From Candidatus Saccharimonadota bacterium (GTDB taxonomy: Bacteria; Patescibacteriota; Saccharimonadia; Saccharimonadales; JACDBH01): a stretch of 58,827 bases of DNA. Numbering within the stretch: the stretch's first letter is position 1; each line of letters opens with the position of its first letter. Location of the stretch: positions 1-58,827 of the forward strand of contig JACDBH010000004.1 of NCBI GenBank assembly GCA_013694995.1. The letters are read 5' to 3'. The notes beneath the pieces were generated by a model. The model had not been told where the DNA came from. It saw only the letters and a list, made by a program, of their open reading frames with translations, and searched no databases. The position numbers and the translations under genes are program-made. Positions 5,420-55,516 of this stretch are shown here, one piece after another.

Positions 5420-5444
5420 AAAAAATATTATACAACATAATATC

Positions 5445-8243: not shown

Positions 8244-8244
8244 C

Positions 8245-8874: not shown

Positions 8875-8875
8875 A

Positions 8876-9481
8876 CTAGTTATCCTTCTCCTGGTTTAAA
8901 AGCAAGAAAGGGTTGTTGTCTTTAATAAAAAGCGCCCGCATACTTGCCTGGCAGGGATATCCACTTACGCCTGAACTTTCTTCGCAGGATAGGCTTTGGA
9001 TGTCGGCTTTTTCGAATATGCCATTGGCTTGATCCTGCAGGTTAACTTGAGCCTGGGTGGCAGTATTGTAGCTTGACGCTCCAACTAATAGGTCTATGCC
9101 ACCCTGCAAGTCGCGGCTTAAGCTAAGATCTTGCAAGATTGTGCCCGAGGGCATCACAAGGCCAATCTGCTGAAGCAGTTTGGAAAACAACACTTCTCTG
9201 GAAAGTACGTCGACAACTAGCTTCAAACTGCCACTAATCTCAGCTACACGTTTGAGAGTCTCTTCCTCATTGCTTGATTTTAGATCAGCTTTAGTGCTGT
9301 CAATGGACTGTTGTAAAGACTTCGAATCTTGTTTCAAGTAAAACATACTACCGCCGGCAATCAGTACCAGACCGGTTGCGGCAATACCGATACCGATTAA
9401 CCATTTTATGAGAGCCGTATTGCGTCTTGAGAAGCTAATAGCCTGCCTATATTCAGGCGGCATTAGGTTAATCATGCTCAT
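8876..9481 (-). CDS. pilN: Type IV pilus assembly protein PilN
   Basis: INLMPPEY N-terminus and a TM helix. It overlaps the pilM stop by 4 nt. Confidence 0.8.
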   Translation of the reverse strand: MSMINLMPPEYRQAISFSRRNTALIKWLIGIGIAATGLVLIAGGSMFYLKQDSKSLQQSIDSTKADLKSSNEEETLKRVAEISGSLKLVVDVLSREVLFSKLLQQIGLVMPSGTILQDLSLSRDLQGGIDLLVGASSYNTATQAQVNLQDQANGIFEKADIQSLSCEESSGVSGYPCQASMRALFIKDNNPFLLLNQEKDN

Positions 9482-10557
9482 AACCAGATTTCCTTGGGTT
9501 CGACTATAGCGGCTCCTGCAACTGTTACATATAGGGTCTGTTCGGCTTCATGAGGCGGTTGTAATTTCTTTAAATCAAAATAGCCCCAGAAGTTACAGAG
9601 CCGGGTCGGGATGCGTAAGTTGTCTGTCATGTAGTCAACTAGTCCTGGCATATTGGCGCCTCCACCCATGGTGATAATCTGCCCGATGCTCTGCTTACCC
9701 TCAGTGCGCTCTTCATAGTATCGGACGACACGGCGGATTTCCTTTATCAACGAATCGAGCTGAGGTTTTAGAGCATCGCGGATTTCCGGCTGCCGCTTAC
9801 TTACGCCTAGCCCATACTTGGTTTTTAAGCTATTAGCTTCGGCTTTTTCTATATTGAGCTTTTCAGCAATACGGTTACTAAAGTCGTCGCCACCACCTGG
9901 GATGGTTCCATTTACAATGAGTATTTCATCAAATACTGTCAGGTCTACCGATAATGAGCCTAGGTCGATTAAAATTGTTGGGATATCGCTGCTATTTTCG
10001 GCGACGGCAATTATGCGGCTGGCCGCCGATATTGTAGTTTCCAACGCGCAGACTTCCAGCCCTAATATATTGAAGAACTTCATATAAGAGTCAACGACTT
10101 TTTTAGGCACAGCTACAACCAATACATCTGTTTGCTCGGCATTTTTAGGATGAGTCATGTAGTCCAGATAAAGATCGTCGATTGGAATTGGAATGTACTG
10201 CTCAGCCTCAAAATGTATAGCGTCTTCAAGCTCATGCTTGTTCAGGCTTGCCGGAACTGTCATAACCCGTGAGTAGGCCCGAGAAGCAGGAATCGTAGCG
10301 GCGACCCGACGGGAAGTAATTTTGCCGATTACACCTTTGTCAAAAAGCTCCATGGCGGCTTTAGCCAGTAATTCGTAATCAACAATAACGCCGTCTTTTA
10401 TAGCCGAGGAGTCAAAACGTGACACGCCATAACCTTTAAGAGTATGGTGTTTGGCATCTTCATCAATCTGCATGACTTTAATAGTGTTAAAGCCGATATC
10501 AAGCCCGAACAAAGGCTTGTCTTTATAAAACAGTGTTTGCTTATGTTGTGTGGCCAC
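9478..10557 (-). CDS. pilM: Type IV pilus assembly protein PilM (actin-like ATPase fold)
   Basis: FGLDIGFNTIKVMQI, DLGSLSVDL and ITMGGGANMPGL motifs. Confidence 0.88.
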   Translation of the reverse strand: MATQHKQTLFYKDKPLFGLDIGFNTIKVMQIDEDAKHHTLKGYGVSRFDSSAIKDGVIVDYELLAKAAMELFDKGVIGKITSRRVAATIPASRAYSRVMTVPASLNKHELEDAIHFEAEQYIPIPIDDLYLDYMTHPKNAEQTDVLVVAVPKKVVDSYMKFFNILGLEVCALETTISAASRIIAVAENSSDIPTILIDLGSLSVDLTVFDEILIVNGTIPGGGDDFSNRIAEKLNIEKAEANSLKTKYGLGVSKRQPEIRDALKPQLDSLIKEIRRVVRYYEERTEGKQSIGQIITMGGGANMPGLVDYMTDNLRIPTRLCNFWGYFDLKKLQPPHEAEQTLYVTVAGAAIVEPKEIWL

Positions 10558-10660
10558 AATAATTTACAGCGGTGCCCTTATAAAAATATACTCTCATTAT
10601 AGCAAACAGCTTATGGTTTCGATACCCGGAAAGCTCCATGGCTTATTTTGAAGGAATCTC

Positions 10661-12079
10661 TTAGTAATCGTACTGGTAGCTTCTGACTGTCCAAGTGCTG
10701 CCGCCGGAAGAAAGGGAAGTGCCGAAGGTTACGGTTCCAGCGCCGCTTAAGTCAATCGTCTGGCCGATGGCCGAGCCAGTATTACCGCTACCTCCTAAGG
10801 TCACCTTTGACCACTGAGCCTGGAAGATTGTACCGGGAAAGTTACCGGCTCCTGAGACGTCTATAGTATTCAGGCTTTGTGAGCTATGTAGGTCCGACCC
10901 GGTGACATCGGTACAGTTAGGGTTACAAGAAGCTGTACTTTTAGATGTAATAAAGTGGGCGCTGGTACCACTGCTGTTGGGAATAACGGTGGCAGAACCG
11001 GTTACAGCCATTGTGCCGTCAATTAATATAACCGGCCGGGTAGTGCCCAGAGATTCGGCAATCCGAATACGGGCTGAGCCACCAACTGTCAGATTGCCAG
11101 TGATATAGGCATTGCCGGTAATCGTTAAATCGCAGCTGCTGGTCCATTTGACGTTGCCGGTCAGTTTGATATTGGCCGCCCAGGTACGCACAAAGCCATT
11201 CGGAGGGACGTTCCTGCTGCAATCGACAGCATTAGCGTTCGAAGCATAGGTGCTGGTGACGGCAGCTAAATGGGCTGCTCTGTCATAAGTCGGAAGTGCC
11301 ACGTAAGGAGCGGTGCAGCCGCTGATGAGTCCGCTGCCGCCATTCCCTGGTAGAATATTAGTCGAAGTAGTTTGTCCGGTGGCGCAGACGCTACCATAAA
11401 TAAAAGTTGAATTATCCATTGTTATAGGTTCGCCAGAATTGCACTTCATAGGAAATGAGGGGCCGGGATTGTTACCTGGTGGACAATTATAGTGGGCAAC
11501 AAACACGTCAAGTGGCTGGCTGTCAGTACCGATCATCGAGTTACCATTCAAATCTATATATCCATTCACGTATATCTTGGAATTGGTGATATGGGCGTTG
11601 CCATTTAGGATTAAACCCCCGGTTCCAGCTTGGACAGAAAACCCAGGAGAAAAAGTGCCCACTGAAGTTATTCTAACAATACGGGTACTAATAGGGTCGG
11701 TTGTTCCGTTAAATCTATATGTTCGTCCGGTTGATGTAATTATTTTTTCGTTCGGACCGCTGCCGGCGGCTACGTTTGTCTGGTAGGTGCCGCGTCCTTG
11801 GGTAATGGAGTTATAAAATTCTGTTTCAGTGGTAAAACCGACAAAAGCGTTATCGGTGTTGAGGGTATAGATGCTTTGTTCGGCTCCGGCTTCCGCGGTA
11901 AGAAGGGCATTAGAAACGAAGACGTTTTTTGAAGTGCGACCGTATTGCCCAATAACCAAATCTACCAAGGACAAGCCAATAAAAGTTAATAGCAAGGCGA
12001 CCAAGAGAACCGTAATAAGTATAATTCCCCGCTCATCATCACGAACTTTTTCTATCGGGGCATACAAGTGATCATTCAT
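10661..12079 (-). CDS. PilX_N-type pilus-associated protein with beta-helix-like C-terminal region
   Basis: ERGIILITVLLVALLLTFIGLSLV resembles the PilX N-terminal domain. The remainder is G/N/T-rich repeats (GNAHITN, ITGNAYITGNLTVGG). It overlaps the upstream minor pilin gene by 8 nt. Confidence 0.6.
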   Translation of the reverse strand: MNDHLYAPIEKVRDDERGIILITVLLVALLLTFIGLSLVDLVIGQYGRTSKNVFVSNALLTAEAGAEQSIYTLNTDNAFVGFTTETEFYNSITQGRGTYQTNVAAGSGPNEKIITSTGRTYRFNGTTDPISTRIVRITSVGTFSPGFSVQAGTGGLILNGNAHITNSKIYVNGYIDLNGNSMIGTDSQPLDVFVAHYNCPPGNNPGPSFPMKCNSGEPITMDNSTFIYGSVCATGQTTSTNILPGNGGSGLISGCTAPYVALPTYDRAAHLAAVTSTYASNANAVDCSRNVPPNGFVRTWAANIKLTGNVKWTSSCDLTITGNAYITGNLTVGGSARIRIAESLGTTRPVILIDGTMAVTGSATVIPNSSGTSAHFITSKSTASCNPNCTDVTGSDLHSSQSLNTIDVSGAGNFPGTIFQAQWSKVTLGGSGNTGSAIGQTIDLSGAGTVTFGTSLSSGGSTWTVRSYQYDY

Positions 12080-12899
12080 TTCTAAACACCGATCTAGTTA
12101 TGTATTCCGCAGTTATATCACGGTTGAATTTTTCCTTAAGTAGGGTAATGGTGACCTCCACAGACCTAGCTTCTCCCGGAGGCACATCGACGTCAAAACT
12201 ATTTACATAACGCACAGTAAGGCCGGTTACACCATCAACCAATTTTTTATCGGCTGGACATAGCGTGGTGGCGCTGGCAGCAGGACAGGAAGTCAGAGCG
12301 CCGTTAAGGGGCGAATCCGCTGCTAGAGTCCGCTTATAGAGGGAGCCGTTCTCAATAAAGTAAATGTTATTGTTTTTATAAGTTATATAATGCAGGGCGT
12401 CTTCAAAAATAACGTCCTGGTACTGGTCATTGGCGGCGGTAGCTAGAATTAGCGTATCGGTATCAGCTTCCCAACTATATTCATTTGCCGGAGCACTAGG
12501 AGCGTTGGCATCCGGCCAACGGTTGAACTCATCGACGTTGGCAGACAAACGTATATCCTTAGAAAGTAGGTCTAATGCCAGCTGGGCTTCCCTTAGAAGG
12601 TCGGCTCGGGCGGAACTGATGCTATTATTCACTATCGTATTAGTTAAAAAAGTCATGATAGCTATAATGACAATGCCTGACAGAGTCGCGGCTACGATCA
12701 TTTCAACAATAGTGAAGCCAGACTGGTTTTCACTGGTCTTGTGCAAAATCCTCGGTTCGGAAGGTGAATCAACTCGATCGAAAACGATTTTATCTGCAGG
12801 AGAGGTACTTAAAGGTAAATTGACAGAAGAAAAATTGTTTACAGCTGAGATTACTGGCTTTGGGGATGGGGGAGCTTTATGTAAGTCCAATATACTCAT
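12072..12899 (-). CDS. Prepilin-type minor pilin (PilW-like) with unusually long N-terminal extension
   Basis: The class III signal QSGFTIVEMIVAATLSG sits about 60 aa from the ATG. That ATG forms an ATGA overlap with the upstream gene's stop. Confidence 0.7.
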   Translation of the reverse strand: MSILDLHKAPPSPKPVISAVNNFSSVNLPLSTSPADKIVFDRVDSPSEPRILHKTSENQSGFTIVEMIVAATLSGIVIIAIMTFLTNTIVNNSISSARADLLREAQLALDLLSKDIRLSANVDEFNRWPDANAPSAPANEYSWEADTDTLILATAANDQYQDVIFEDALHYITYKNNNIYFIENGSLYKRTLAADSPLNGALTSCPAASATTLCPADKKLVDGVTGLTVRYVNSFDVDVPPGEARSVEVTITLLKEKFNRDITAEYITRSVFRNE

Positions 12900-13291
12900 T
12901 GTCCGATACCAATCACGCCGATGAGTGAGCTGAGTTGGACAGTTCTTTGGTCGGCCCCGTCCTTGTAAGTAATAGCCAAATCAACCCTGCGCAACCCGGC
13001 GCTGGGCTCGCTGACCTCTATAGTACCGGTTTTAGGGGAATGCAAGTCGGCGGGTAATTCACTTGTAAAATCGATATCGACGCCAGGCGTCAGGCTGCTG
13101 TACTGTTGGTTACGCAGCGATTCTATCTGCCGTTCTCCGGCGCGGGTAGCTAGCTCCAAATGATATGTCTTACGTTGGGTAGTCTCGATTGTAATATACA
13201 GATTCGTTATCCCAACTATAATCATCCCAATTACAACAATTGCAACCAGTAATTCGACTATTGTGAACCCCGCTTGGGAACGTTTCTTCAT
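12896..13291 (-). CDS. Prepilin-type minor pilin (PilV-like)
   Basis: MKKRSQAGFTIVELLVAIVVIG. The internal ATG at 13291 is preferred over the ORF start at 13312. Confidence 0.75.
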   Translation of the reverse strand: MKKRSQAGFTIVELLVAIVVIGMIIVGITNLYITIETTQRKTYHLELATRAGERQIESLRNQQYSSLTPGVDIDFTSELPADLHSPKTGTIEVSEPSAGLRRVDLAITYKDGADQRTVQLSSLIGVIGIGQ

Positions 13292-13359
13292 GCTTATGCT
13301 TAACAATAACAAAAACCGGCTGCTAGAAGCAACCGGTTATCTGTTACGAAACTATCGTA

Positions 13360-13746
13360 TTACTGGTTAACGCTTGTGAGCGTGTAGACACCACCGACCG
13401 CATCCGGATCGTTAGTATTCTCCATCGTTGCTGCTAGTGTATATGATGTTCCGCCACCTACTGCTGTGTAAGTGTAGGCATCGCTCCTAGGGCCTGTCGT
13501 TTCGTCGGCTGTAACACCTGCATCTGCCTGGGCAGCTGCAAAGTCAGCTGGGTACGCTCCGTTGTCGTTAAAATACGTTTCTAGCTTCTGCTGGACGTTC
13601 TTAAGCTCGTTCTTACGATCAGTGTCGCGGCCACGGGCCTGGGCACTGAATAGATTTGGCAGCGTCAAAGCTACCAAGATACCGATAATAACAATCACGA
13701 CTAACAGTTCGATAATCGTGAAACCTTTTTGATTCATTCGTCGCAT
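13360..13746 (-). CDS. pilA: Type IV major pilin
   Basis: MRRMNQKG/FTIIELLVVIVIIGIL. An AAGGAG RBS lies 8 nt upstream of the ATG at 13746, and the gene has its own strong promoter. Confidence 0.85.
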   Translation of the reverse strand: MRRMNQKGFTIIELLVVIVIIGILVALTLPNLFSAQARGRDTDRKNELKNVQQKLETYFNDNGAYPADFAAAQADAGVTADETTGPRSDAYTYTAVGGGTSYTLAATMENTNDPDAVGGVYTLTSVNQ

Positions 13747-13792
13747 TATAACCACTCCTTAATGCTTACTATTTTTTTTCTGATACTCTGAC

Positions 13793-13820
13793 AATATACT
13801 GCTTATGGCTGAAATGTCAA
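13793..13820 (-). promoter_or_regulatory. pilA promoter
   Basis: On the minus strand: TTGACA (13815-13820), a 16-nt spacer, then TATATT (13793-13798). It lies in the pilC-pilA gap. Confidence 0.55.
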
Positions 13821-13826
13821 TGATTT

Positions 13827-15035
13827 TTACACAGCTCCTTGGATAGAGATTATAGGACCGAGCACGCTCATAACAATAAAACCGACAATTCCACCCAAGC
13901 CTACTATCAAAATCGGCTCTATAATCGAAGACAGGCCGCTAGTGATAGCATCAACTTCGTCTTCGTAAAACTCAGCCACCTTATCCAGTACTTCTCCGAT
14001 CTTCCCGGTTTCCTCGCCGACAGCTGTCATCTGGATAATTATGGCAGGCAGTATATTGCTCTGTCCCAAGCTAGTAGCTATATTGCTGCCGTTTTTAATG
14101 CTTTCAACACTATCAGTCAGTGCTTTTCGGACTACTAGATTGGTTAGTGCTCCACTGGTTATATTTAAGGCCTCAATCACAGTAACTCCAGCAGCCAAAA
14201 GTGAGCTGAAAGTGCGGGCAAATCGTGCGACATTAACCTTAAGGATGATATTACCGAATATCGGTATCCTGAGTAGGAATTTATGGAATGCATATTTACC
14301 TTTTGGGTTTCCCGTAAGTCTTCGGAAAAGAAAAACTGCTAAAATGATGGCTCCAATAAGGATGTACCATTTACTGGTCATAAAGTCGCTTATTGCTAGG
14401 ACGACTTTTGTTTGTAATGGAAGCTTGCCTCCGGCACCTTGCAATATAGAGGCAAGCTTAGGAACAACACTAACCATTAGAAAGCTTACAGCACCAACAG
14501 CGACTAGAGTAACTACCAATGGATACACCATAGCGCTTTTAAACTTACCCTTGATTTGAGCGTCTTTTTCAACCTGGGTGGCCAGGCGATTTAAAATCTG
14601 ATCCAATATACCACCGGCTTCTCCGGCCCGCACCATATTGACGTAGACTTCAGAAAACGCTTTAGGGTGCTTGGCAAGGGAGTCGGATAGCTGTGCGCCA
14701 CCCTCGACATCTGAAATGATTTTACCCAAAGCTTCCTTGAGAGCCGGTGAGCTTGATTGTTCGCGTAAGGTCGTTAAGGAGCGGAGCATTGGAACGCCTG
14801 CGCTGATCATAGTAGCGAACTGGCGGGTAAAAACCACCAACGCTTTCGGTTTGACCTTGCCGCTGCCAGGCAGTTTTATGTTCATCTTCAGCCCGCTTGA
14901 ACCGGCAGGTTTGACGGTTACGGGTGTAAGGTTACGTTTACGCAAGGTATCGATTGCCTGGTCTTTGGATGGAGCCGATATTGAGCCCTCCTGGGTCTTA
15001 CCAGATGCATCACGTGCACTATAAACAAACTCCAT
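13827..15035 (-). CDS. pilC: Type IV pilus platform protein PilC (GspF family)
   Basis: Duplicated GspF domains (FTRQFATMISAGVP and FARTFSSLLAAGV) and three TM segments. Confidence 0.92.
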   Translation of the reverse strand: MEFVYSARDASGKTQEGSISAPSKDQAIDTLRKRNLTPVTVKPAGSSGLKMNIKLPGSGKVKPKALVVFTRQFATMISAGVPMLRSLTTLREQSSSPALKEALGKIISDVEGGAQLSDSLAKHPKAFSEVYVNMVRAGEAGGILDQILNRLATQVEKDAQIKGKFKSAMVYPLVVTLVAVGAVSFLMVSVVPKLASILQGAGGKLPLQTKVVLAISDFMTSKWYILIGAIILAVFLFRRLTGNPKGKYAFHKFLLRIPIFGNIILKVNVARFARTFSSLLAAGVTVIEALNITSGALTNLVVRKALTDSVESIKNGSNIATSLGQSNILPAIIIQMTAVGEETGKIGEVLDKVAEFYEDEVDAITSGLSSIIEPILIVGLGGIVGFIVMSVLGPIISIQGAV

Positions 15036-15036
15036 A

Positions 15037-16851
15037 TTATTCAGATCCCTTCGATGCAGTTACACGCAGGATTTCCTCTAAAGAAGTTTGTCCGCGTAGA
15101 GCTTTAATAAAACCATCAACTTGCATTGACACCATGCCGTCTTTAATGGCCTGCTGGTTGATGACTTCGGATGTAGAATTGGCAACAATTAGCTTCTGTA
15201 TTGTATCGGAATTGTTTAAGACCTCGTAAATACCAATACGGCCGCGGTACCCTGTCAGGTTGCATTCGTCGCAACCGCCGTCGTGGGCCCGCCAGATCCG
15301 GGTAATTTGCTTCTCACTAGTACTGAGGCTAAGGGTCGATTGTTTACCGGCCCCGGTCTTACCGATACCGCCGTCGAGCGCTTGTTCTTCGAGCTGATGG
15401 ATAAATTTCATCGATGCAGCATCTGATATCGCGAAAGATTCCGAAATCTTTTTTATAGTAGCCGCATCAGGCTCGATGCTCTCGCGGCAGGTTGGGCAGA
15501 GACGACGCACCAGCCGTTGCCCAACGACAGCGCGGACAGTGCTGGCAATCAAGAAGGCTTCTATGCCCATATCCAAAAGCCGCGGCAGACAAGTTGCGGC
15601 GTTGTTGGTGTGTAGAGTACTAAAGACTAAGTGGCCGGTAAGAGCCGCCTGTACCGCCAGCCCGGCAGTCTCGCCGTCGCGGATTTCCCCTACCATTATA
15701 ATGTTCGGATCTTGGCGAAGTAGCGCCCGTAGCCCATTTACAAAAGTCATTCCGGCCATCGGATTCACTTGAGTCTGATTGGTACCTGGCACGCGATATT
15801 CAACTGGGTCCTCAACGGTAGAAATATTTACTTTAGGGCTGTTGATTAGCGACAGGACACTAAATAGGCTGGTGCTTTTGCCCGAACCGGTAGGACCGGT
15901 AACTAAAACCATGCCGTGCGGCTGGATAATAGCTTCGTTTATAGTTTTGAGTGATCTGCCCCAATAACCCAGTTCTTCTAGTGTCAGTGCCTTGCTTGAT
16001 TCGTTCAAAATACGCATAACTACTTTTTCGCCGTCGACGATAGGCAGAGTGGAGACGCGCAGAGCGTAGATAGCACCGTTAGCCGAAATCTTAAAACGGC
16101 CATCCTGAGGGGCGCGGCGTTCATCAATCTTGAGGTTGCTTAATATCTTAATGCGTGACACAAGCGCCGCTAGTACCTTTTTGGGCAGCTTGTTGGTTTC
16201 TTTTAATATGCCATCGATGCGGTAGCGGACCGACACCATGTTTTCCCTAGGTTCAATATGTATATCACTAGCACCGGCTTTGACTGCGTATTCGATTAAT
16301 AGGTTGACGGTTTGGGCAATTGGCGAGTCTTCGGCGACATCTTCCTCGGAAATATTCTCGTCAATGTCCTCGGTAATCTCTTCCGGACTCATGACTTTAG
16401 TCAGCTCGGAAGTAATATTGTCGCGGTACTGTTCGAGCGCTGTTCTGATGTTCTGTTCACTGGCCATGGCGACTTTGATGTCATTGCCCAGCTCTTTTTT
16501 CAAGAAGTTTACTGCCTGGACATCATCCGGATCTTCGATAGCCAATAATTTAGCACCGTCGTTATCAATGCCATACAAAACTACTTTGTATTGGTTGGCT
16601 ATGCGCTCTGGAATGAGCCTGAGTACTTCACGTTTGATGTCTTTCGGATCTAGCTCAATAAATGGAACTTCAATTTCTGCGGCGTAAAGCTGGGTCAGCT
16701 CTTTCTCGCTGATGATGTTGCCCTTAACGACCAAATCCTGAAGAGCAGTTTTATTATTGCCCGACTGTTCGCGGATATTCTTAATCTGCTCATCGGTTGC
16801 TTTACCGCTTTTAAGCAGCAATTCTTTAACTAATGCATCGGAAATTCGCAT
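15037..16851 (-). CDS. pilB: Type IV pilus assembly ATPase PilB (GspE family)
   Basis: N-terminal MshEN/T2SSE_N region, Walker A GPTGSGKST, Asp/His boxes and a tetracysteine motif (CPTC...CDEC). Confidence 0.95.
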   Translation of the reverse strand: MRISDALVKELLLKSGKATDEQIKNIREQSGNNKTALQDLVVKGNIISEKELTQLYAAEIEVPFIELDPKDIKREVLRLIPERIANQYKVVLYGIDNDGAKLLAIEDPDDVQAVNFLKKELGNDIKVAMASEQNIRTALEQYRDNITSELTKVMSPEEITEDIDENISEEDVAEDSPIAQTVNLLIEYAVKAGASDIHIEPRENMVSVRYRIDGILKETNKLPKKVLAALVSRIKILSNLKIDERRAPQDGRFKISANGAIYALRVSTLPIVDGEKVVMRILNESSKALTLEELGYWGRSLKTINEAIIQPHGMVLVTGPTGSGKSTSLFSVLSLINSPKVNISTVEDPVEYRVPGTNQTQVNPMAGMTFVNGLRALLRQDPNIIMVGEIRDGETAGLAVQAALTGHLVFSTLHTNNAATCLPRLLDMGIEAFLIASTVRAVVGQRLVRRLCPTCRESIEPDAATIKKISESFAISDAASMKFIHQLEEQALDGGIGKTGAGKQSTLSLSTSEKQITRIWRAHDGGCDECNLTGYRGRIGIYEVLNNSDTIQKLIVANSTSEVINQQAIKDGMVSMQVDGFIKALRGQTSLEEILRVTASKGSE

Positions 16852-16942
16852 ATTGTTTACGCTTAGTATATCTTAAATCATTTTTGTTAAATACCGTTAA
16901 AAGTCTTGACTGTTGTTAGAGCAAGTTGTACTGTATCTTGTT

Positions 16943-16971
16943 CATGCTTGCATGAGGCTAACGAGTATAAT
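16943..16971 (+). promoter_or_regulatory. recA upstream box CATGCTTGCATG plus TATAAT
   Basis: Near-palindrome at 16943-16954. TATAAT at 16966-16971 is only 12 nt after TTGCAT. The RBS AAGAGGAG precedes the ATG at 17002. Confidence 0.4.
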
Positions 16972-17001
16972 ATAACTACGGATATAAAGAGGAGTTACTA
17001 A

Positions 17002-18030
17002 ATGGCAAAATCACAGTCTGACCCAAAAGTGATGCAGGATGTCTCGCAAGCCGATGGCAAGTCTAAAGCTTTAGGCATGGCGGTCGATCACATAGAAAAA
17101 CAATTTGGCAAAGGCACGATAATGCGCCTTGGTGAGTCAACTCACCAGAATGTAGAATGCTTTCCGACCGGCAGCATAAGTCTGGACTTGGCCTTAGGTG
17201 GCGGTATCCCTAAAGGCCGGGTCATCGAAGTTTATGGGCCCGAAAGCTCCGGTAAAACCACCCTTACATTACATGCGATTGCTGAAGTCCAACGCAAAGG
17301 CGGCACGGCAGCTTTCATCGATGCCGAGCATGCACTCGATCCGCAGTATGCTCAGCGCATAGGAGTTAACCTAGAAGAACTGCTGGTTTCGCAGCCCGAT
17401 AATGGTGAGCAAGCACTTGAAATAGTGGAATCATTAGTCCGTTCCAACGCTGTTGACCTTATTGTTGTCGACTCGGTCGCCGCGCTTGTGCCGCAGGCCG
17501 AAATCGAAGGTGATATGGGCGATTCTCATATGGGTTTGCAGGCTCGGTTGATGAGCCAGGCACTCCGCAAGCTCACGGCCATTATCAGCAAAAGCAAAAG
17601 CACGGTTATATTTATTAATCAGCTGCGTATGAAGATTGGCGTCATGTTCGGCAATCCCGAAACAACTACTGGTGGTAATGCGCTGAAATTCTATGCCAGT
17701 TTGCGCATGGATATCCGCCGTATTTCGCAAATCAAACAGGGCGAGGCCGTCATAGGCAACCGAACAAGAGTAAAAGTAGTTAAAAACAAAATTGCACCGC
17801 CGTTTAGAGAAGCCGAGTTCGATATCATGTATAACGAAGGTATTTCAAAAGAAGGAGACGTGCTGGATCTGGCTACCGCTAAAGAAATCGTCGAAAAAGC
17901 CGGCGCTTGGTATGCCTATGAGAACGAAAAAATCGGCCAGGGCCGCGAAGCCGCCAAGCAATACTTGCGTGATAATCCAAAAACATTGGAGAAAATTGCT
18001 AAACAAGTCATGGACGCTAGTAAAGCCTAA
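17002..18030 (+). CDS. recA: Recombinase RecA
   Basis: GPESSGKTT Walker [10 protein letters not shown] and the L1/L2 loop regions. Confidence 0.97.
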
Positions 18031-49842: not shown

Positions 49843-51807
49843 TTATAAGCCGAAGCCGCGCTCAAATAGCGGCCTAGTTCTGTTATTGGTTATGCCGTTA
49901 GTGTTAATGGGTAATTGCTGTATGACTGATGGCCAAGGCAGGGGAAGCTTCCCGCTGAATTTACTGTTGCCAAATAATACGTCGGCGACACCGCCTCCCT
50001 CGCTGCCCGGTAACCATGCCGCCACGGCCGCATCCCAACCCGTTATCTGATCCGTAATAAGTAGTGGCCTGCCTGACAATATAACCACGACAACTTTATT
50101 GCTGCTTAACTTTAGGCGCTGGATAACCTCCAGGTCTGCTTTCTCGATTGTTGGGTTAGCGTTGTCCCCCCAGCCTTCGGCGTATGGTCTCTCGCTAATT
50201 ATGGCAATTCCGACATCGGCTTTAGATGTTAAACCGTCAAAAATACCGCTGATATCATATTCAATCCGGTTATTTCCCGCTAGCTGGCGGATGCCTTGTA
50301 ATATTGATGTTCCCCCGGGCATCCAATTACCATCAACGCCTTGCCACTCAACTGTCCAGGCACCGGATTGCCGTCCGACATTATCGGCACCACTTCCAGC
50401 TATTAGTATGTGTCCGGAATTTTTAGACAAGGGTAGCAAAGTGTTTTCATTTTTTAATAGCACAACAGATGATGCTACGGCTTGGCGCGCTAGCTGCCGA
50501 TGAGTGACCGACCCTACATTTTCTAATCCCGCATTTTCAGTATCGATATCAAACAAACCTGCCTTAAATTTCTGATACAGAATCCGGCTGACGGCATCGT
50601 CGATTCTTGAGCGGCTGATTTTACCGCTTTTCACGGCCTTGCGGACGTCAATTAAAAAATCTTTGTAGTCGTAAGGAAGCATAGCCATATCAAGCCCTGC
50701 ATTTATAGTATTTATATTAGCTTGGTATTTACTTGTTTCGGCATACTCATACACTCCATACCAGTCCGACACTACGAAGCCCTTAAAACCAAGCTCAGTT
50801 TTAAGTTTGTCAGTTAATAAATACTTGCTGTCGATTACGCGCTGCTCGCCCCACTGGTTGAGCCCAATCATAACGCTGGATACGCCAACCTCTACAGCAG
50901 CTTTATATGGCGGCAAATACTCACTAACCAGCGCCTGTTCGTCCGCACTGGTCCTGCCTTGGTCAATCTTGAACTTTTTATTATTAGATTGGTTCCATTC
51001 CATAGCTCCTGTCGCCAAATAATGTTTTGCAGCCGCCATAATAGAAGGGTTGCCGGACATAGCCGCCTGCATACCTTCTATAAAAGCTGCGCCCAGAGTT
51101 CCGTTAAGCATAGGATCATCTGAAAAAGCTTCATAAACTCTGCCCCAGCGGATATCTTTTGGCGCGTCTAGAGAAGGCGAAAAGTTCCAGTTGACTCCGG
51201 TTGCGGTCAGCTCAGCCGCCGTGGCTTTAGCTACTGCTGTAACTAGGTCGGCATCCCTACTGGCGCCCAGGCCGATCGCGTGCGGGAAAATAGTTGCCCC
51301 CAACACGTTAGAATGGCCATGGTTGGCATCAATACCATATAAAATCGGTATCCGCAGGCGTGAGTTGTCCGCTTGGCTTTTAATTTCACTAACCATATCA
51401 AGCCAGCCTTGGGGTGTATTGATATCAGGTTTAGCCCCGGCGCCACTAAGCATACCCCCTAAGTAATACCTACTGACGTCCTCAATTTTTTTCAAACTGT
51501 TTTTATCTACCAGCGCCATTTGGCCGATTTTCTCCTCTAGAGTCATACGGCCTAAAAGGTCCTGGACCCTTGACTCAATTGGCTGGCCAGATTGTTTGTA
51601 TAATGCATCCGCGGGGGGTGGGGGCAGCTTAAGTCCTAAGTCTTCAGGACGCTGTAAATACGCCGCCGTCCCAGCAATAATAGCTAGTGCAACCAGTAAA
51701 ACTAATTTACGACTTAGTATCGGCTTATTCCAGCTTAGATTTCGCTTTACCTTAGCCGATCTTTTAGATTTTTTTACTTTGCGGCTGACTTTGCTCTTTT
51801 TTAACAT
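49843..51807 (-). CDS. Glycoside hydrolase family 3 (beta-glucosidase/hexosaminidase-like), N-terminally anchored
   Basis: KHYLATG, GFVVSDW (nucleophile Asp) and a C-terminal GH3 domain. Confidence 0.88.
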   Translation of the reverse strand: MLKKSKVSRKVKKSKRSAKVKRNLSWNKPILSRKLVLLVALAIIAGTAAYLQRPEDLGLKLPPPPADALYKQSGQPIESRVQDLLGRMTLEEKIGQMALVDKNSLKKIEDVSRYYLGGMLSGAGAKPDINTPQGWLDMVSEIKSQADNSRLRIPILYGIDANHGHSNVLGATIFPHAIGLGASRDADLVTAVAKATAAELTATGVNWNFSPSLDAPKDIRWGRVYEAFSDDPMLNGTLGAAFIEGMQAAMSGNPSIMAAAKHYLATGAMEWNQSNNKKFKIDQGRTSADEQALVSEYLPPYKAAVEVGVSSVMIGLNQWGEQRVIDSKYLLTDKLKTELGFKGFVVSDWYGVYEYAETSKYQANINTINAGLDMAMLPYDYKDFLIDVRKAVKSGKISRSRIDDAVSRILYQKFKAGLFDIDTENAGLENVGSVTHRQLARQAVASSVVLLKNENTLLPLSKNSGHILIAGSGADNVGRQSGAWTVEWQGVDGNWMPGGTSILQGIRQLAGNNRIEYDISGIFDGLTSKADVGIAIISERPYAEGWGDNANPTIEKADLEVIQRLKLSSNKVVVVILSGRPLLITDQITGWDAAVAAWLPGSEGGGVADVLFGNSKFSGKLPLPWPSVIQQLPINTNGITNNRTRPLFERGFGL

Positions 51808-51871: not shown

Positions 51872-52243
51872 TCATACCATATGGCTAATGCAGACCCAGT
51901 TACCGGCAGGGTCTTTAAACCAAGCAGCATCGCCCATTTCGGGGTGGCTCATGACACCTGTAGCGTCTGAGCCTTCAAGTTTTTCAACTTGTATGCCATT
52001 TTCACCTAGTTCTTTAACTGCTGAGTGGACATCATCAACTTCTACGCCTAATACTGTAGAATCCCAGGCCTTATGATCACTTTTAAAATATATGTTGATT
52101 TTAGTACCACTACCACTCTCTAGTACGATATCGTTCTCATTTTCTTTTTTCACTTTGAAACCAAGTTTATCAACGTAAAAGTTTTTTGCTTCTGCTAAAT
52201 CGTCAACACTAAAATTAGCATGAGTATTATTTTGTCCTAACAT
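51872..52243 (-). CDS. VOC/glyoxalase-family protein
   Basis: About 120 aa, with a FYVDKLGF motif. Confidence 0.7.
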   Translation of the reverse strand: MLGQNNTHANFSVDDLAEAKNFYVDKLGFKVKKENENDIVLESGSGTKINIYFKSDHKAWDSTVLGVEVDDVHSAVKELGENGIQVEKLEGSDATGVMSHPEMGDAAWFKDPAGNWVCISHMV

Positions 52244-52398
52244 TCCAGCCTCCTTATTTACATTTAAATTATACTCTTAGCCCTAGCAACAAGCCAATAA
52301 TACTCAGTTGGGCCATAGTATATGAGTGGCAAAACGAAACTCTGGAATTCAACAATAATAACGCTCACGTTAAGGTAGTCATAAAAACATAACTCGCT

Positions 52399-52432
52399 TG
52401 GAGGGCCAGCGTAGATTCTGTATCAGCTAATT
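52399..52432 (-). repeat. att-like junction R1 (tRNA-Lys(CUU) 3'-end copy plus shared arm)
   Basis: tggagggccagcg is identical to 55440-55452. It is followed by tagattctgtatcagcta, which is related to R2 and R3. Confidence 0.8.
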
Positions 52433-52824
52433 TTCGGTTTACGCAGCGCCATTAGCTTGCGAATACCTAGATAAATTCCGCAAACAACCAGTGACCAAAA
52501 TATCCAGTTTATGTAAAAGTTTATAGTAGTAAAAGATTCGTTTAGAAATCCAAATGCCGAACTAGCGTTATCCATGTCGCTACAATCATTAAAACTTGCC
52601 TTCACGGTTGAATGGGTTGGGTATCCAACATGGCGCATACTCATGTCAACCTGATAATTCAAACCAGTGCATAGCATTCGTTCAGGTACCAGTTGTCCAG
52701 TGTTAAACTCAGAATCACGTGGTTGCTCAAAGCCTCTGAAGTAACTTACCTGTTTTGAGTTCGGGAGTACAATCAGCAATATGTTTATAATCAATCCAAG
52801 TATCACCGCTATGCCAACGATCAT
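52423..52824 (-). CDS. Cassette 1: two-TM hypothetical protein
   Basis: The start is taken at MIVGIAV. The 25-codon upstream extension runs through a hairpin and repeat R2. Confidence 0.5.
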   Translation of the reverse strand: MIVGIAVILGLIINILLIVLPNSKQVSYFRGFEQPRDSEFNTGQLVPERMLCTGLNYQVDMSMRHVGYPTHSTVKASFNDCSDMDNASSAFGFLNESFTTINFYINWIFWSLVVCGIYLGIRKLMALRKPKIS

Positions 52825-52888
52825 CTTCTTCACAACTTTACTATAACAAAAACAGAGGCAAATGCCTCTGTTATAAGCATAAGTGTAT

Positions 52889-52921
52889 TGGAGGGCCATA
52901 GTGCACGTTATTGCAACTATG
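52889..52921 (-). repeat. att-like junction R2
   Basis: tggagggcca (10 nt of the core) followed by tagtgcacgttattgcaactatg. Confidence 0.7.
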
Positions 52922-53020
52922 CTTCAAGCATAGTTAGCTACCAACCTGAACGTAGGTTATTTGTGCATCTTAATAGTGTAGTATTATTAGGCAGGAATCA
53001 TTATCTAAAGAAGGGCTAGA

Positions 53021-53836
53021 ATGAAGTACTCAAGTATAAAGGACCTTTACGCCAAAGTAAGCAGCGAGTTAAATACCCTGGCTATAATAGTTGCTGTAGT
53101 TTCTCTTCTACTGGCAATTGCACTGCCAAATACAGTTAGTGCAACTCATTCTTGGAATAATTACCACTGGGCAAGGCAGGCTAACCCATTTACCTTAAAG
53201 CTAAGTAGTAATTTATCGACAAACTGGCAGCCTTATTTAATAACAGCATCTAGTGATTGGTCTCAATCGAGTGTCTTGGACACGGTCGCGGTAACAGGAA
53301 CTAAGAATCCAAAAACCTGCAAGCCAACTTTAGGCCAAGCAGAAATTTGTAATGCAAGCTACGGACGGAATGGTTGGTTGGGGCTGGCACAGATTTGGAT
53401 TAGCGGATCGCATATCACCCAAGGCGCGGTTAAGATGAATGACACCTACATGAGTAAGGCACCGTATAATACCGTTGCGGAAAAGAATCATGTTATGTGT
53501 CAAGAAGTAGGACATATTTTTGGGTTGGGTCATCAAGATGAATCAGGCGCTGATCTTGGAACATGTATGGATTATTCTATGAGTACAAATAGCCAACGTC
53601 CTAACCCTCACGATTACGAACAACTGCAGCAAATTTATAATCACCTAGATAGCACCACTTCAGTAGGTGCAATTGTGAACACGGACGCAGCTAGTGATAG
53701 TAGCGACTTGAATAGTTCGCAAAACTGGGGCCGTCGGGTATTTCGCTCAAAAAGCGGTTTTGTTGAAGTTTATGAGCGTACGTACAAAGATGGTAGCAAG
53801 TTGATTTCACTTGTAAATTTAGCTGATCACCAATAG
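53021..53836 (+). CDS. Cassette 2: secreted metzincin-like protein with QExxHxxGxxH
   Basis: Signal/anchor segment, then CQEVGHIFGLGHQDE. The first His of the canonical HExxH is Gln. Confidence 0.65.
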   Translation: MKYSSIKDLYAKVSSELNTLAIIVAVVSLLLAIALPNTVSATHSWNNYHWARQANPFTLKLSSNLSTNWQPYLITASSDWSQSSVLDTVAVTGTKNPKTCKPTLGQAEICNASYGRNGWLGLAQIWISGSHITQGAVKMNDTYMSKAPYNTVAEKNHVMCQEVGHIFGLGHQDESGADLGTCMDYSMSTNSQRPNPHDYEQLQQIYNHLDSTTSVGAIVNTDAASDSSDLNSSQNWGRRVFRSKSGFVEVYERTYKDGSKLISLVNLADHQ

Positions 53837-53845
53837 TCTAATTTT

Positions 53846-53880
53846 TGGAGGGCCAGCGTAGGCGCTGTAGCAACTATTTT
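53846..53880 (-). repeat. att-like junction R3
   Basis: tggagggccagcg followed by taggcgctgtagcaactatttt. Confidence 0.8.
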
Positions 53881-54236
53881 GAGTTACGAACAGTATATAC
53901 AAGAATCATTATCGTCCCGATGATTATTGAGATATATATAATAGGCACCCATCCAATAGCTCCGAAGCCATCATTTGCATGGAAAGCTAGTAAAGAAATT
54001 AAAGATATCGCCCACACAATCAGAAGAAGTCGTGATCGAGTGAAGCCATATCTAAGATAAATAGAAATTAAGCTTCCGACTACGCCAACCGGGACTAGAT
54101 AAAGAAAATTAGTGAAAATGTCATTCATTACATAGTCGGGACTAAAGATTCCCCCTATAGAGAAGGCGATAATATATGAAAGAATTCCAGCAATTATCAG
54201 GAAAGGCCAAAAATATCTGTTAAATTTTGTCATCAA
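53874..54236 (-). CDS. Cassette 3: four-TM hypothetical membrane protein
   Basis: Hydrophobic 120-aa ORF. Its stop codon lies inside the R3 arm. Confidence 0.55.
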   Translation of the reverse strand: MMTKFNRYFWPFLIIAGILSYIIAFSIGGIFSPDYVMNDIFTNFLYLVPVGVVGSLISIYLRYGFTRSRLLLIVWAISLISLLAFHANDGFGAIGWVPIIYISIIIGTIMILVYTVRNSK

Positions 54237-54270
54237 GTTAATAGTAACAGAAAATAAAGTATAAGCGTCT

Positions 54271-54287
54271 TAGAGGGCTAGCGGGGA
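54271..54287 (-). repeat. att-like junction R4 (degenerate, longer core)
   Basis: tagagggctagcgggga versus the tRNA's tggagggccagcgggga, 15/17. Confidence 0.6.
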
Positions 54288-54346
54288 TGTTATGTTATAT
54301 CAACTAAAATTCAGATATTTAACTAAGTACACATCGAAAAAAACAA

Positions 54347-55255
54347 CTAGACGCGCTTCTCCGAATACACAATATCTAACCACTGAAAGTTGTTGATAAC
54401 CTGCTCCTCAATAAAGGCAGTTTCTTCTTGAGGTAAGGTCGACTGGCTTATCTGGGTCAAAAAACCTTCTTTTAAATAGTCTTTACTAATTCCGATGTTT
54501 TCGCTCCATAATTGTTCAGCTAGACGATAAAATCGAAGAATAGCTCCTTCGCGTGTCGCGCACACGGCTTTTAACGACTCCGGGGGCAATGTGTCTAATT
54601 TAGAACTGTAAGCCGCCCATTCGCCGTTCTCATTAAATTGTTTGGGTCCAAATAAATCTACAAAGTACACTTTTCCGTCTGCTTCGGCTACGACATTGGC
54701 AAGTTTCAAATCCAAACCATGTGGCAAAATGGTTACATCTTCGCCCGCCACCATGCCGCGACTTAACCCGGCTTCATCATATCCCGCTAATGTTTCAATA
54801 ACTCGCCGAATCATAAACCACTTTCGGAAGTTCGGGACATCGGGGTTAATGATCATTTTTTCACCATCTCCCCCTGGAATGAATTGATCATATGAGAATA
54901 TCTGTGTCTCGCCGTTAATCCTTGTCGGCGCGTGAAAGAAAGTCTCCGGTATATTCCAACCTTGTTTGATTAGCTCACCACGATATGGCATCAGCATACC
55001 ATCCAATAAGACAGCTTCACCTCCGTCTAAACCCTTTCCTGCAGCCATTCGCTTCCACAGCACCTTGAAATATTCTCCTCCAACTTCATATTCCATAACT
55101 GACACACGTGATTGTCTGCTCTCACTGATTCCTGCAGTGTCAATGAACTTAAACTCTACGAACTGCTCAAGCTGCCGATGTGCATCCAATTCCGCTGCGG
55201 TCGGCGTAAACCTATCACTATGTGACTGATAGAGTTCGTTATGATCAGTTGACAT
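54347..55255 (-). CDS. Cassette 4: hypothetical protein with weak protein-kinase-like motifs
   Basis: HGLDLKLAN (D-x4-N catalytic-loop-like) and VYFVDLFG (DFG-like). This is motif level only. Confidence 0.5.
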   Translation of the reverse strand: MSTDHNELYQSHSDRFTPTAAELDAHRQLEQFVEFKFIDTAGISESRQSRVSVMEYEVGGEYFKVLWKRMAAGKGLDGGEAVLLDGMLMPYRGELIKQGWNIPETFFHAPTRINGETQIFSYDQFIPGGDGEKMIINPDVPNFRKWFMIRRVIETLAGYDEAGLSRGMVAGEDVTILPHGLDLKLANVVAEADGKVYFVDLFGPKQFNENGEWAAYSSKLDTLPPESLKAVCATREGAILRFYRLAEQLWSENIGISKDYLKEGFLTQISQSTLPQEETAFIEEQVINNFQWLDIVYSEKRV

Positions 55256-55402
55256 GTTTATATTTTACTCCGTTTTCCTATTAGTACAGAAGGAGGAATA
55301 AAATTAAGCACTGTCAAAGGAAAACATTTACTGTCACAGGTTATTAATGCCCACAGGCACCCCTTTGGTATGTCCGGACTTCAAGTTCTTGCAAAACATG
55401 CC

Positions 55403-55440
55403 AAATAAAATGACCCATCTTAGGATGAGTCATTTTATTT
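55403..55440 (-). terminator. 12-bp hairpin beginning at the 3' end of tRNA-Lys(CUU)
   Basis: aaataaaatgac / gtcattttattt. Confidence 0.45.
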
Positions 55441-55516
55441 GGAGGGCCAGCGGGGACTTGAACCCCGGACACCCTGCTTAAGAGGCAGGTGCTCTAACCA
55501 GCTGAGCTACTGGCCC
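55440..55516 (-). tRNA. tRNA-Lys (anticodon CUU)
   Basis: 77-nt cloverleaf. Acceptor GGGCCAG/CUGGCCC, anticodon loop CUCUUAA, and the CCA is encoded. Confidence 0.93.

Follow-up and report, generated by a model that had tools for sequence, protein, structure and literature searches.

The window, by which we mean the whole 58,827-nt stretch analysed (contig JACDBH010000004.1 of a Candidatus Saccharimonadota bacterium), contains a tRNA-Lys(CTT) gene that anchors an array of four intervals, A to D, delimited by copies of the tRNA 3′ end (Table 1). Each interval holds one ORF, three of the four being co-oriented with the tRNA, and the stop codons of ORFs A and C fall within the repeat arm, that of C being the TAG at site positions 29-31. 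This arrangement had been described in a sequence-only reading of the DNA and is borne out here. The product of ORF A has two hydrophobic segments. That of ORF B is secreted and metzincin-like, with the motif QEVGHIFGLGH and weak Peptidase_M10/M43 matches (E = 6e-4), and the AlphaFold2 model of the ORF D product (pLDDT 89) finds its best PDB matches among kinase folds. At its tRNA-proximal end, cassette A carries a terminator hairpin (52851-52872), the spacer TTATAAGCATAAGTGTAT and the extended -10-like sequence TGTTATAGT; the hairpin directly 3′ of the tRNA would represent the tRNA-proximal end of cassette D. The GC contrast also reported earlier proved to be modest, with 40.9% in the array, 44.1% in the whole window and 47.3% in the GH3 gene. 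The window also encodes ComEC, competence-type pili, RecA, RecX and RuvABC.

Table 1. Features of the tRNA-Lys-anchored array, listed from the tRNA outwards
Feature	Position	Strand	Details
tRNA-Lys(CTT), array anchor	55440..55516	-	ARAGORN; Rfam tRNA model 70 bits
Terminator hairpin directly 3′ of tRNA	55401..55442	-	Inverted repeat I3, 19 nt, 95% complementary; terminator scan
Cassette D	54271..55439	-	Degenerate site R4 54271-54305; ORF 54347-55255 (-), protein-kinase-like
Cassette C	53846..54270	-	Site R3 53846-53880; ORF 53874-54236 (-), 120-aa membrane protein
Cassette B	52889..53845	+	Site R2 52889-52923; ORF 53021-53836 (+), opposite orientation
Cassette A	52399..52888	-	Site R1 52399-52433; ORF 52423-52833 (-), small membrane protein
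Possible decayed site copy R0, TTGGGCCATAGTATATGAGTGGCAAAACGAAACT	52308..52341	+	nhmmer E = 2.3, not significant alone
Glyoxalase/bleomycin-resistance-like gene, just distal to array	51872..52243	-	Pfam Glyoxalase E = 1.6e-12

We searched the window with TGGAGGGCCAGCG, the reverse complement of the tRNA-Lys(CTT) 3′ end including CCA. At up to two mismatches it occurs at 52399 (0), 52889 (2), 53846 (0) and 54271 (2), besides the tRNA itself at 55440, and nowhere else in the window. All five matches lie on the + strand, in the tRNA's orientation, and exceed chance: shuffles give 0.90 expected matches, and none of 100 reached five. R1, R2 and R3 remain similar past the tRNA-derived core (repeat family D1, 36 nt, 61-83% identity), and an nhmmer profile built from other genomes recovers them with E = 5e-12, 1e-14 and 1.5e-12 respectively, confirming that they are related junctions with shared flanks. 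R4 is weak by the same profile (E = 0.01); it is tRNA-like through 17 nt and then arm-like with an insertion of roughly 4 nt. The tRNA identity of the copies in the window is uneven, at 10, 13, 13 and 17 nt. The further decayed copy suspected at 52308 did not reach significance, though it includes the 11-nt GGGCCATAGTA, which matches a site variant found at R2. No site was detected at the 3′ end of the glyoxalase-like gene, a homolog of which is a cassette in another array (L010; E = 5e-17); this gene may be an old cassette with a decayed site. The only other contig with the window's array genes has an identical arrangement, and neither excised circles nor gain or loss of cassettes at strain level were seen for the source genome.

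What recurs is a conserved 35-nt site, TGGAGGGCCAtCGTaGAnGCTATyGCAACTAnnnT. Among GTDB species representatives, a degenerate 31-nt pattern derived from R1-R3 matched 46 loci, nearly all in Saccharibacteria MAGs, where about 0.1 matches are estimated to occur by chance; a slightly broader pattern picked up at least 120 contigs from metagenomes. More than 160 Saccharibacteria loci have such site-and-cassette arrays behind a tRNA-Lys. Site copies almost always form co-oriented tandem arrays that end at tRNA-Lys (CTT or TTT), with up to 11 copies in 8 kb in the profile search. Among the matches listed, all 232 of 232 metagenome copies of at least 20 bits fall on one strand, and the next tRNA is a tRNA-Lys in the same orientation in 52 of 54 metagenome loci. 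In the genome set, 24 of the 46 loci have a tRNA-Lys 290-2900 nt away from the site, and site quality does not clearly fall as the tRNA becomes more distant. Left of the core, the sequence falls into at least three classes, so that not all copies can have a symmetric two-arm core site. Short contigs carry many of the homologs and site copies, and it is common for a contig to end at the site.

The cassettes share a compact plan, with a median length of 676 bp (n = 121), and of 118 longest ORFs, 100 run in the same direction as the tRNA. In a non-redundant set of 212 cassettes, the ORF stops exactly at the TAG of the site in 49, and the motif TGnTAnnnT lies within 60 nt upstream of the start codon in 130, compared with 23 in shuffles. 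The median distance from core to start codon is 57 nt. A perfect hairpin is present in 80/212; hairpin sequences differ among cassettes, and the spacing between hairpin and junction is roughly constant in many. Read in tRNA orientation, a cassette comprises a short spacer, often a terminator hairpin, its own extended -10 promoter and one ORF, followed by the conserved arm TAGTTGCGATAGCATCTACGATGG, whose first triplet often serves as the ORF's stop, and then by the 7-nt core CCCTCCA. The cargo is diverse. The 118 cassette ORFs form 102 BLASTP clusters, and 111 ORFs match 70 Pfam families. Represented are APH-type and ROK kinases, NUDIX hydrolases, toxin-antitoxin modules and glyoxalase-type genes, and the pool even has a heliorhodopsin. 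Three cassettes match Pfam RelB, and a RelB-type antitoxin cassette keeps its own operator and promoter. With toxin-antitoxin modules and kinases among these families, the cargo does not serve mainly host interaction, as had been proposed.

Comparison between arrays places the breakpoints at the core. Two loci, L005 and L048, are 99% identical, and L005 has an extra 2.1 kb exactly at TGGAGGG, adjoining the tRNA. Its left junction reads as old trailer, TGGAGGG and new arm, the arm departing from the tRNA match immediately after TGGAGGG, and its right junction as new hairpin, TGGAGGGCC and tRNA body. Moreover, L016:416-848 and L022:403-835 hold the same cassette (87% identical), fourth behind the CTT gene in one and first behind the TTT gene in the other, with flanks that diverge exactly at the core. 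One RelB-type antitoxin cassette is present in six arrays, its homology starting at, or no more than 14 nt from, site position 1 where the end is seen. Because the L005/L048 and L016/L022 junctions break there, the last 7 nt of tRNA-Lys, CCCTCCA (TGGAGGG on the + strand, 55440-55446), would be the crossover region, analogous to attI.

Using XerD, gamma-delta resolvase and a Patescibacterial Xer probe in phmmer, we found no tyrosine or serine recombinase in the window, the 46 genome loci or the 120 metagenome loci (about 1 Mb of array loci). The Pfam tables of called genes likewise list no recombinase, and the window has no Phage_integrase-type protein. The claim that the window is free of recombinases holds for the tyrosine and serine families; an IS200-like Y1 (HUH) transposase gene (Y1_Tnp) does, however, lie at 4805-5419.

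The conserved site and its arrays point to an integron-like gene-capture system with a recombinase encoded elsewhere. We thus read 52399-55516 as the local array of a Saccharibacteria-wide, integron-like cassette system anchored at tRNA-Lys, with site-specific capture in trans, and put the probability of this reading at about 70%. The sequence-only reading had suggested serial site-specific integration of single-gene, non-autonomous units at the tRNA-Lys 3′ end, serviced in trans; this gains comparative support from the more than 160 loci, the L005/L048 insertion, the cassette common to L016 and L022, and the lack of a linked recombinase. We propose that a free, presumably circular, cassette recombines via its core with the final 7 nt of the tRNA-Lys gene, which are identical to that core. 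This would leave the tRNA intact and give it the spacer and terminator of the new cassette, while older cassettes would be moved distally, so that the array would grow at the tRNA. Loss of cassettes would be possible too, as would their transfer from one array to another and between CTT and TTT tRNA-Lys genes. The enzyme would be encoded away from the locus and act in trans, and is most likely a simple tyrosine recombinase that binds the ~35-bp site. As the recombinase itself was not found, we infer catalysis, just as we do the circular form of the free cassette, the class of the enzyme and present activity in the source genome. A description of such a system was not found in the literature, and it is apparently undescribed.

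Gene exchange might instead proceed with no dedicated recombinase, the site and tRNA gene acting as homology anchors for natural transformation with RecA-dependent or microhomology-mediated recombination. The competence and recombination genes of the window, the lack of any array with a linked recombinase and the varying length of tRNA identity would all fit. However, the tRNA and the incoming arm have just 7-13 nt in common, which is too short for RecA-mediated pairing, and the L005 arm diverges directly after the core. Anchors alone would also leave unexplained a non-coding 35-nt site that is nearly invariant across the phylum between unalignable flanks, and we consider this route unlikely.

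It is rather less likely that the intervals are decayed remnants of larger integrase-bearing elements (ICE, IME or prophage) accreted at tRNA-Lys in the manner of CIMEs. Direct repeats of the tRNA 3′ end in tRNA orientation and units without an integrase agree with such decay, as do fossil-like arrays with decayed sites (L174) or a truncated tRNA-Lys (L044/L116). Against it, the cassettes (121-212, depending on the set) are uniformly compact and single-gene, the same ones recur as precise units, about 1 Mb of arrays holds no integrase or conjugation remnants, and the full site was not found in 2.9 million viral contigs. The earlier comparison offered both a CIME and an integron-like analogy; the latter fits better, since cassettes are compact, have the stop codon in the site, carry their own promoters and lack integrase remnants.

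The site could also be mainly an RNA or expression element, for example a conserved 3′-UTR module (tRNA-like CCA end, trailer and terminator), a micro-ORF or an antisense -10 promoter, in which case the arrays would be gene clusters sharing it and recombination there incidental. It does always lie just 3′ of co-oriented ORFs, often with the stop codon and often followed by a terminator. Moreover, it shows a codon-like periodicity, with 46-52% of differences from the consensus synonymous in two frames, and T35 could equally be a codon second base or the closing T of a -10 box of the form TAnnnT. Yet the site has no Rfam match, no consistent fold and no covariation, and neither coding-like frame has a usable start codon. 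Folding of spacer plus site as single-stranded DNA gave z-scores of -2.7 to +0.7 and no common structure. The restriction of the site to tRNA-Lys neighbourhoods, and insertions and homology breakpoints exactly at the core, likewise make this explanation very improbable.

Least probable of all is 'peel and paste' single-strand mobilisation by an IS200/IS605-type Y1 (HUH) transposase in trans, in which CCCTCCA would form both the target and the end sequence and the enzyme would recognise the hairpin some 17 nt downstream: the Y1 gene of the window, homologs within arrays L004, L068 and L139, the strict strand polarity of arrays and the frequent hairpin spacing would suit it, but the window gene sits between ruvC and ruvA like an ordinary IS insertion that the relative L175 lacks, Y1 occurs in just 4/166 array loci, hairpins vary by cassette and are perfect in only 80/212, and no conserved hairpin was found in the arm.

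Returning to integron-like capture in trans, several observations count against it. The codon-like periodicity is not predicted by a pure protein-binding site, and the uneven tRNA identity of the window copies is not predicted by a fixed 7-bp crossover. The flank classes left of the core, the lack of a clear fall in site quality away from the tRNA, and the failure to find a recombinase, excised circles or strain-level cassette turnover also weigh against it. We tentatively entertain, as a possibility we ourselves think doubtful, a phylum-wide gene-capture platform in which the last 7 nt of tRNA-Lys serve as docking site for the 35-nt site, the unlinked machinery is non-canonical, and the periodicity reflects a second, overlapping function. 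Such machinery would not be an integron integrase, and might be a housekeeping or novel recombinase; the second function could be, for example, a micro-ORF, an antisense promoter or guided recognition.

As a phylum of episymbionts with reduced genomes, Saccharibacteria are considered to have few mobile elements, and in these and other CPR bacteria, with their tiny genomes, the acquisition and turnover of accessory genes are poorly understood. A conserved cassette platform would account for a hypervariable locus in Saccharibacteria and may explain frequent assembly breaks there. The 35-mer would offer a simple marker for mining the flexible gene pool of the phylum (toxin-antitoxin modules, kinases, heliorhodopsin), and the tRNA-Lys site would be a natural docking site for genetic tools in transformable cultured Saccharibacteria.

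Among known systems, the 178-bp repeats at E. coli tyrT likewise place repeated tRNA 3′ ends behind a tRNA gene. Whereas those are tandem duplications of one unit, the intervening genes here are mutually unrelated and a non-tRNA arm is conserved across the phylum. Acinetobacter pdif modules and IMEX elements, which the housekeeping XerC/XerD of the host moves, resemble the cassettes in being small, recombinase-less and bounded by short conserved sites, and the cassettes would likewise depend on an enzyme encoded elsewhere. In class 1, the spacer TTATGCTTAAA is similar to the dif XerD arm (TTATGTTAAAT), and class-1 junctions can be read as ATGGCCCTCCA-ATACGC-TTATGCTTAAA, with a right half that is XerD-arm-like. 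However, the XerD-arm-like spacer is missing from class 2 and class 3 flanks. Moreover, pdif sites have an 11-6-11 layout, a XerC arm and a XerD arm around a 6-nt spacer, and alternate in orientation around plasmid-borne modules, whereas the repeats here are direct, chromosomal and have a tRNA-derived core.

In streptococcal CIMEs, direct repeats of the tRNA-Lys 3′ end delimit tandem non-autonomous units that need an integrase in trans, and the units described here are flanked in the same way. CIMEs are kilobase-scale ICE or IME remnants of heterogeneous content that have lost their recombination and transfer modules, with cognate integrase-bearing elements known at the same site. In contrast, the units of the Saccharibacteria arrays are uniform, each an expression cassette for one gene with a conserved arm dedicated to it, and neither about 1 Mb of arrays nor the viral contigs yielded a parent integrase-bearing element. 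The rAID-1 clusters of Bacteroidales are co-directional arrays of small, diverse, lower-GC genes whose repetitive intergenic stretches are described as 'reminiscent of integrons'; their defining feature is a gene for a XerD-family recombinase at the cluster 5′ end, and they carry immunity genes (Ross et al., bioRxiv 10.1101/471110). Co-directional lower-GC genes and repetitive intergenic motifs are found here too, with the difference that there is no linked recombinase, the anchor is tRNA-Lys and the cargo is broad.

Like integrons, above all sedentary chromosomal ones such as the Vibrio superintegron with its VCR repeats, the Saccharibacteria system has long co-oriented arrays of mostly single-ORF cassettes whose site abuts or overlaps the stop codon, one fixed primary insertion site (here next to the tRNA, as in L005 versus L048), and diverse cargo rich in toxin-antitoxin, phosphotransferase, NUDIX and glyoxalase-type genes. 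In integrons, the tyrosine recombinase gene intI lies adjacent to attI, whereas here no intI adjoins the arrays, and a tRNA gene 3′ end takes the place of attI. The recombination sites also differ: attC is an imperfect inverted repeat that folds in single-stranded form, its structure conserved and its sequence little so, whereas the 35-mer is linear and conserved in sequence. Finally, integron cassettes are promoterless and depend on Pc, whereas most cassettes here carry a promoter of their own. The tRNA-Lys arrays would thus add an independent case of integron-like architecture, one with an unlinked recombinase and a docking site inside a tRNA gene.

The 3′ end of tRNA-Lys(CTT), which reads TGGAGGGCCAGCGGGGA on the plus strand, recurs in the window as the sequence-only reading had proposed. 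With up to two mismatches, the 13-mer TGGAGGGCCAGCG occurs five times in the 58.8 kb, always on the plus strand: at the site copies R1 to R4 and in the tRNA gene itself. Shuffles gave an expectation of 0.9, and none of 100 reached five. The sequence said to be common to R1, R2 and R3 on the right of the core (TAG..CTGTA.CA.CTA) was recovered as well. These three copies lie near the consensus, and R4 is tRNA-like for 17 nt and then arm-like, with a small insertion. A further decayed copy, proposed at 52308, was not significant. Each of the four intervals does hold a single ORF, A to D. The lower GC content claimed for the array stood in direction but is small in size, at 40.9% versus 44.1% for the window. 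One other contig with the array genes of the window is known, and its arrangement is identical.

Features of the window and of the compared loci (handles such as L142 denote array-bearing or related loci, with locus-internal coordinates)
Feature	Position	Strand	Remarks
tRNA-Lys(CTT)	55440-55516	minus	ARAGORN
R1	52399	plus	arm 52407-52434
R2	52889	plus	arm 52897-52924
R3	53846	plus	arm 53854-53881
R4	54271	plus
ORF A			small membrane protein
ORF B			secreted metzincin-like protein; weak M10/M43 matches
ORF C			membrane protein
ORF D	54347-55255		protein-kinase-like fold; AlphaFold2 model pLDDT 89; top PDB matches all kinases, including Rio1, PknB, APH(3′)
GH3 beta-glucosidase gene	49843-51807		flanks the array
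Y1 transposase gene	4805-5419	minus	IS200-like (HUH), 204 aa; Pfam Y1_Tnp E = 3e-10
ruvC	4295-4774
Recombination/competence cluster	~640-17600
Two tandem arrays, each with tRNA	L142:5962-10852
Common cassette	L016:416-848; L022:403-835
Heliorhodopsin cassette	L045 (oriented) 6760-7642
NUDIX duplication	L004:1105-3676
GH3 end with half-site	L173 (reverse complement) 5628-7880
Truncated tRNA-Lys	L044:5885-6020; L116:9110-9250
Left flanks, examples	L028:5059; L014:7795; L039:7569; L010:1311; L035:6293
Left flank, class 1			hairpin + TTTAAGCATAAGCGTAT
Left flank, class 2			hairpin + CATAATGCTTATGCT, 9-mer inverted
Left flank, class 3			structured element of ~70 nt, ending GTATCTGTT....TCTT

When a degenerate 31-nt pattern fitted to R1-R3 was scanned against GTDB, with each species represented by one genome, 46 loci matched (chance estimate about 0.1), almost all of them in Saccharibacteria MAGs; a slightly broader pattern matched at least 120 JGI metagenome contigs. 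The full site had no match in viral contigs, and three arm-only matches there, all without the core, equalled the chance expectation; a phage or plasmid origin was rejected on these grounds. The consensus is TGGAGGGCCAtCGTaGAnGCTATyGCAACTAnnnT, in which positions 1-10, 13-14, 21, 23, 25-29 and 35 are conserved at 93-99% (316 unique copies) and beyond which the flanks are unalignable. A profile built from the site copies finds nearly always tandem, co-oriented arrays, the densest with up to 11 copies within 8 kb. Among the contigs listed, all 232 metagenome copies of at least 20 bits lie on one strand. Of the 46 genome loci, 24 have an array that ends at tRNA-Lys, oriented as in the window, and most others are truncated at the locus boundary; where a tRNA follows in the listed metagenome loci it is tRNA-Lys in 52 of 54 cases (43 CTT, 9 TTT). 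Locus L142 carries two tandem tRNA-Lys(CTT) genes with an array before each, in the order array, tRNA, array, tRNA. Site quality showed no clear trend with distance from the tRNA in a sample biased by the locus-finding method. The identity between the site and the resident tRNA is limited to TGGAGGGCC(A) in most genomes, so the arm is conserved in its own right.

Comparison of array loci revealed where the units begin and end. L005 and L048 have one cassette in common (99% identity), which tRNA-Lys follows directly in L048, whereas 2.1 kb is inserted between them in L005. The left junction of this insert passes from the old trailer through TGGAGGG into a new arm, and the right one from a new hairpin through TGGAGGGCC into the tRNA body; left of the common cassette, similarity between L005 and L048 breaks off exactly at site position 1. 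L016 and L022 have another cassette in common (87% identity), which is in fourth place behind a CTT gene in one locus and heads the array at a TTT gene in the other; its homology covers promoter, hairpin and spacer and ends at the cores on both sides. A RelB-type antitoxin cassette was found in six arrays in differing contexts, its homology beginning at, or at most 14 nt from, site position 1 wherever that end is visible. These breakpoints indicate that each unit extends from core to core. The arm moves together with the 3′ end of the ORF, and spacer and hairpin with its 5′ end, which places the probable exchange point inside TGGAGGG, corresponding to the terminal 7 nt of the tRNA (CCCTCCA). 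The tRNA identity of the four copies in the window (10, 13, 13 and 17 nt) is not predicted by a fixed crossover. Best supported, with a probability of about 0.7, is an integron-like cassette-capture system, which the sequence-only reading had raised as a store serviced in trans: the tRNA-Lys 3′ end would dock incoming units, the 35-nt element would be the cassette site, and a recombinase would be supplied in trans.

In the genome loci, the median interval is 676 bp long (n = 121), and in 100 of 118 cases the longest ORF points in the same direction as the tRNA. Among 212 non-redundant cassettes, the stop codon falls inside the site in 88 (49 with exactly TAG at site positions 29-31), start codon and tRNA-proximal core are separated by a median of 57 nt, and TGnTAnnnT, an extended -10 motif, occurs within the 60 nt before the start in 130, versus 23 in shuffles. 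In tRNA orientation, the core is often followed by a spacer and a terminator hairpin, and tRNA-Lys genes have the same kinds of trailer. Taken together, these features suggest that the cassettes are compact, self-expressed units. Their cargo is diverse: 118 ORFs form 102 BLASTP clusters, and 111 ORFs match 70 Pfam families, including AAA_18 kinases, ROK, APH, RelB, PIN, YoeB, NUDIX, D-Ala-D-Ala ligase and heliorhodopsin. The last is a complete gene (Pfam E = 2.5e-91) and forms a single-gene cassette. With 92 of the 118 ORFs being singletons, the ORFs are not paralogs that arose by tandem duplication, a possibility the sequence-only reading had allowed for. It had also proposed looking for the window's ORFs beside the same junction elsewhere; one homolog of B, in L160, and about 123 of D were found, and no site lies near them in the contexts examined (L160, L176-L178). 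The D homologs (42-67% identity) are mainly from Patescibacteria and also from Actinobacteria (Amycolatopsis, Acidimicrobiales). Actinobacteria include hosts of cultured Saccharibacteria, and these homologs may reflect gene exchange between host and epibiont.

The arrays of some lineages appear to be fossils. The syntenic 6-kb stretch between tRNA-Lys and GH3 in L174 retains decayed sites only, and in L173 the GH3 gene adjoins tRNA-Lys(TTT) and ends in a half-site, GCTATTGCAACTAttcT, which contains its stop codon. The GH3 gene adjoins tRNA-Lys in relatives, where the closest homolog is 73% identical, and is possibly a large cassette of old date. The arrays of L044 and L116 stop at what is left of a truncated tRNA-Lys (TGGAGGGCCATCTGGGACACGAAC), beside an intact tRNA-Trp; part of the anchor gene has been deleted. 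Decay of large integrative elements, the CIME-type history that the sequence-only reading had also put forward, explains less of the evidence than cassette capture.

We searched for the enzyme with phmmer, using XerD, gamma-delta resolvase and a Patescibacterial Xer from L178 as queries, with regex probes and Pfam tables of called genes, and by running Pfam on conserved neighbours. Neither tyrosine nor serine recombinases were detected in the window, the 46 genome loci or the 120 metagenome loci examined, nor by Pfam scans in ORFs beside four examined arrays without a nearby tRNA-Lys. The conserved neighbours are housekeeping genes (folD, murI, murD and others), and a linked recombinase was rejected. 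Sequence left of the core sorts into classes that recur as tRNA-Lys trailers. Class-1 junctions have an imperfect dyad around the core, AGCATnnnCG..AT / ATCGnnnATGCT, which would be compatible with a simple tyrosine recombinase whose overlap is 7 bp; this is only a lead, because the dyad is absent from the other classes. The window also holds a dense cluster comprising ComEC, ruvC/A/B, a type IV pilus and competence-pilin operon, recA and recX, which bears on the possible entry of free cassette DNA into the cell. Recombinase-free exchange following natural transformation accounts for less of what was observed than capture by a recombinase.

The arm (site positions 9-36) varies in a codon-like manner in all copies, with conservation lowest at positions 12, 15, 18 and 24. 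Synonymous changes make up 46% of deviations from consensus in a plus frame (WRAIVDAIATKI...) and 52% in one minus frame (...ILVAIASTMALQ), which has its wobble positions in common with the former, versus 10-25% in the remaining four frames. Neither coding-like frame has a consistent or usable start codon. For T35, two roles are conceivable: middle base of a hydrophobic codon, or final T of a TAnnnT -10 box. A conserved C-terminus of the cassette proteins was rejected, as in-frame upstream ORFs span just 8-57 codons, and so was another RNA gene: Rfam matched the tRNA alone, the T-arm is absent and there is no fold. A site that served only at the level of RNA or expression would explain less of the evidence than a recombination site does.

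The claim that the window lacks any integrase or recombinase holds for tyrosine and serine types (phmmer, Pfam), but a Y1 transposase gene is present between ruvC and ruvA/ruvB. It seems to be an ordinary insertion, since ruvA and ruvC are adjacent in the relative L175, where the gene is missing. Only 4 of the 166 array loci have a Y1 gene, and homologs (E about 1e-59) are cassettes within arrays in L004, L068 and L139. In L004, the Y1 cassette stands between two exact copies of a segment made up of a NUDIX cassette and both of its flanking sites, a duplication that could be real or an assembly artefact. HUH-type single-strand mobilisation fits less of the evidence than the integron-like reading.

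When comparing these arrays with known systems, the cargo profile resembles that of chromosomal integrons, whereas the site is unlike attC, since spacer and site show no consistent fold as single-stranded DNA. The nearest published analogue that we read, rAID-1 of Bacteroidales (bioRxiv 10.1101/471110), has a linked XerD-like recombinase; in the Saccharibacteria arrays, the enzyme is unlinked. Full-text searches found no description of tRNA-Lys site-and-cassette arrays, in line with the supposition that the type is undescribed in CPR-type genomes. The principle of cassette arrays built by site-specific recombination is already known; the tRNA anchor, linear conserved site, self-promoted cassettes and unlinked enzyme are new, and they occur in a phylum that had not been expected to have such a system.
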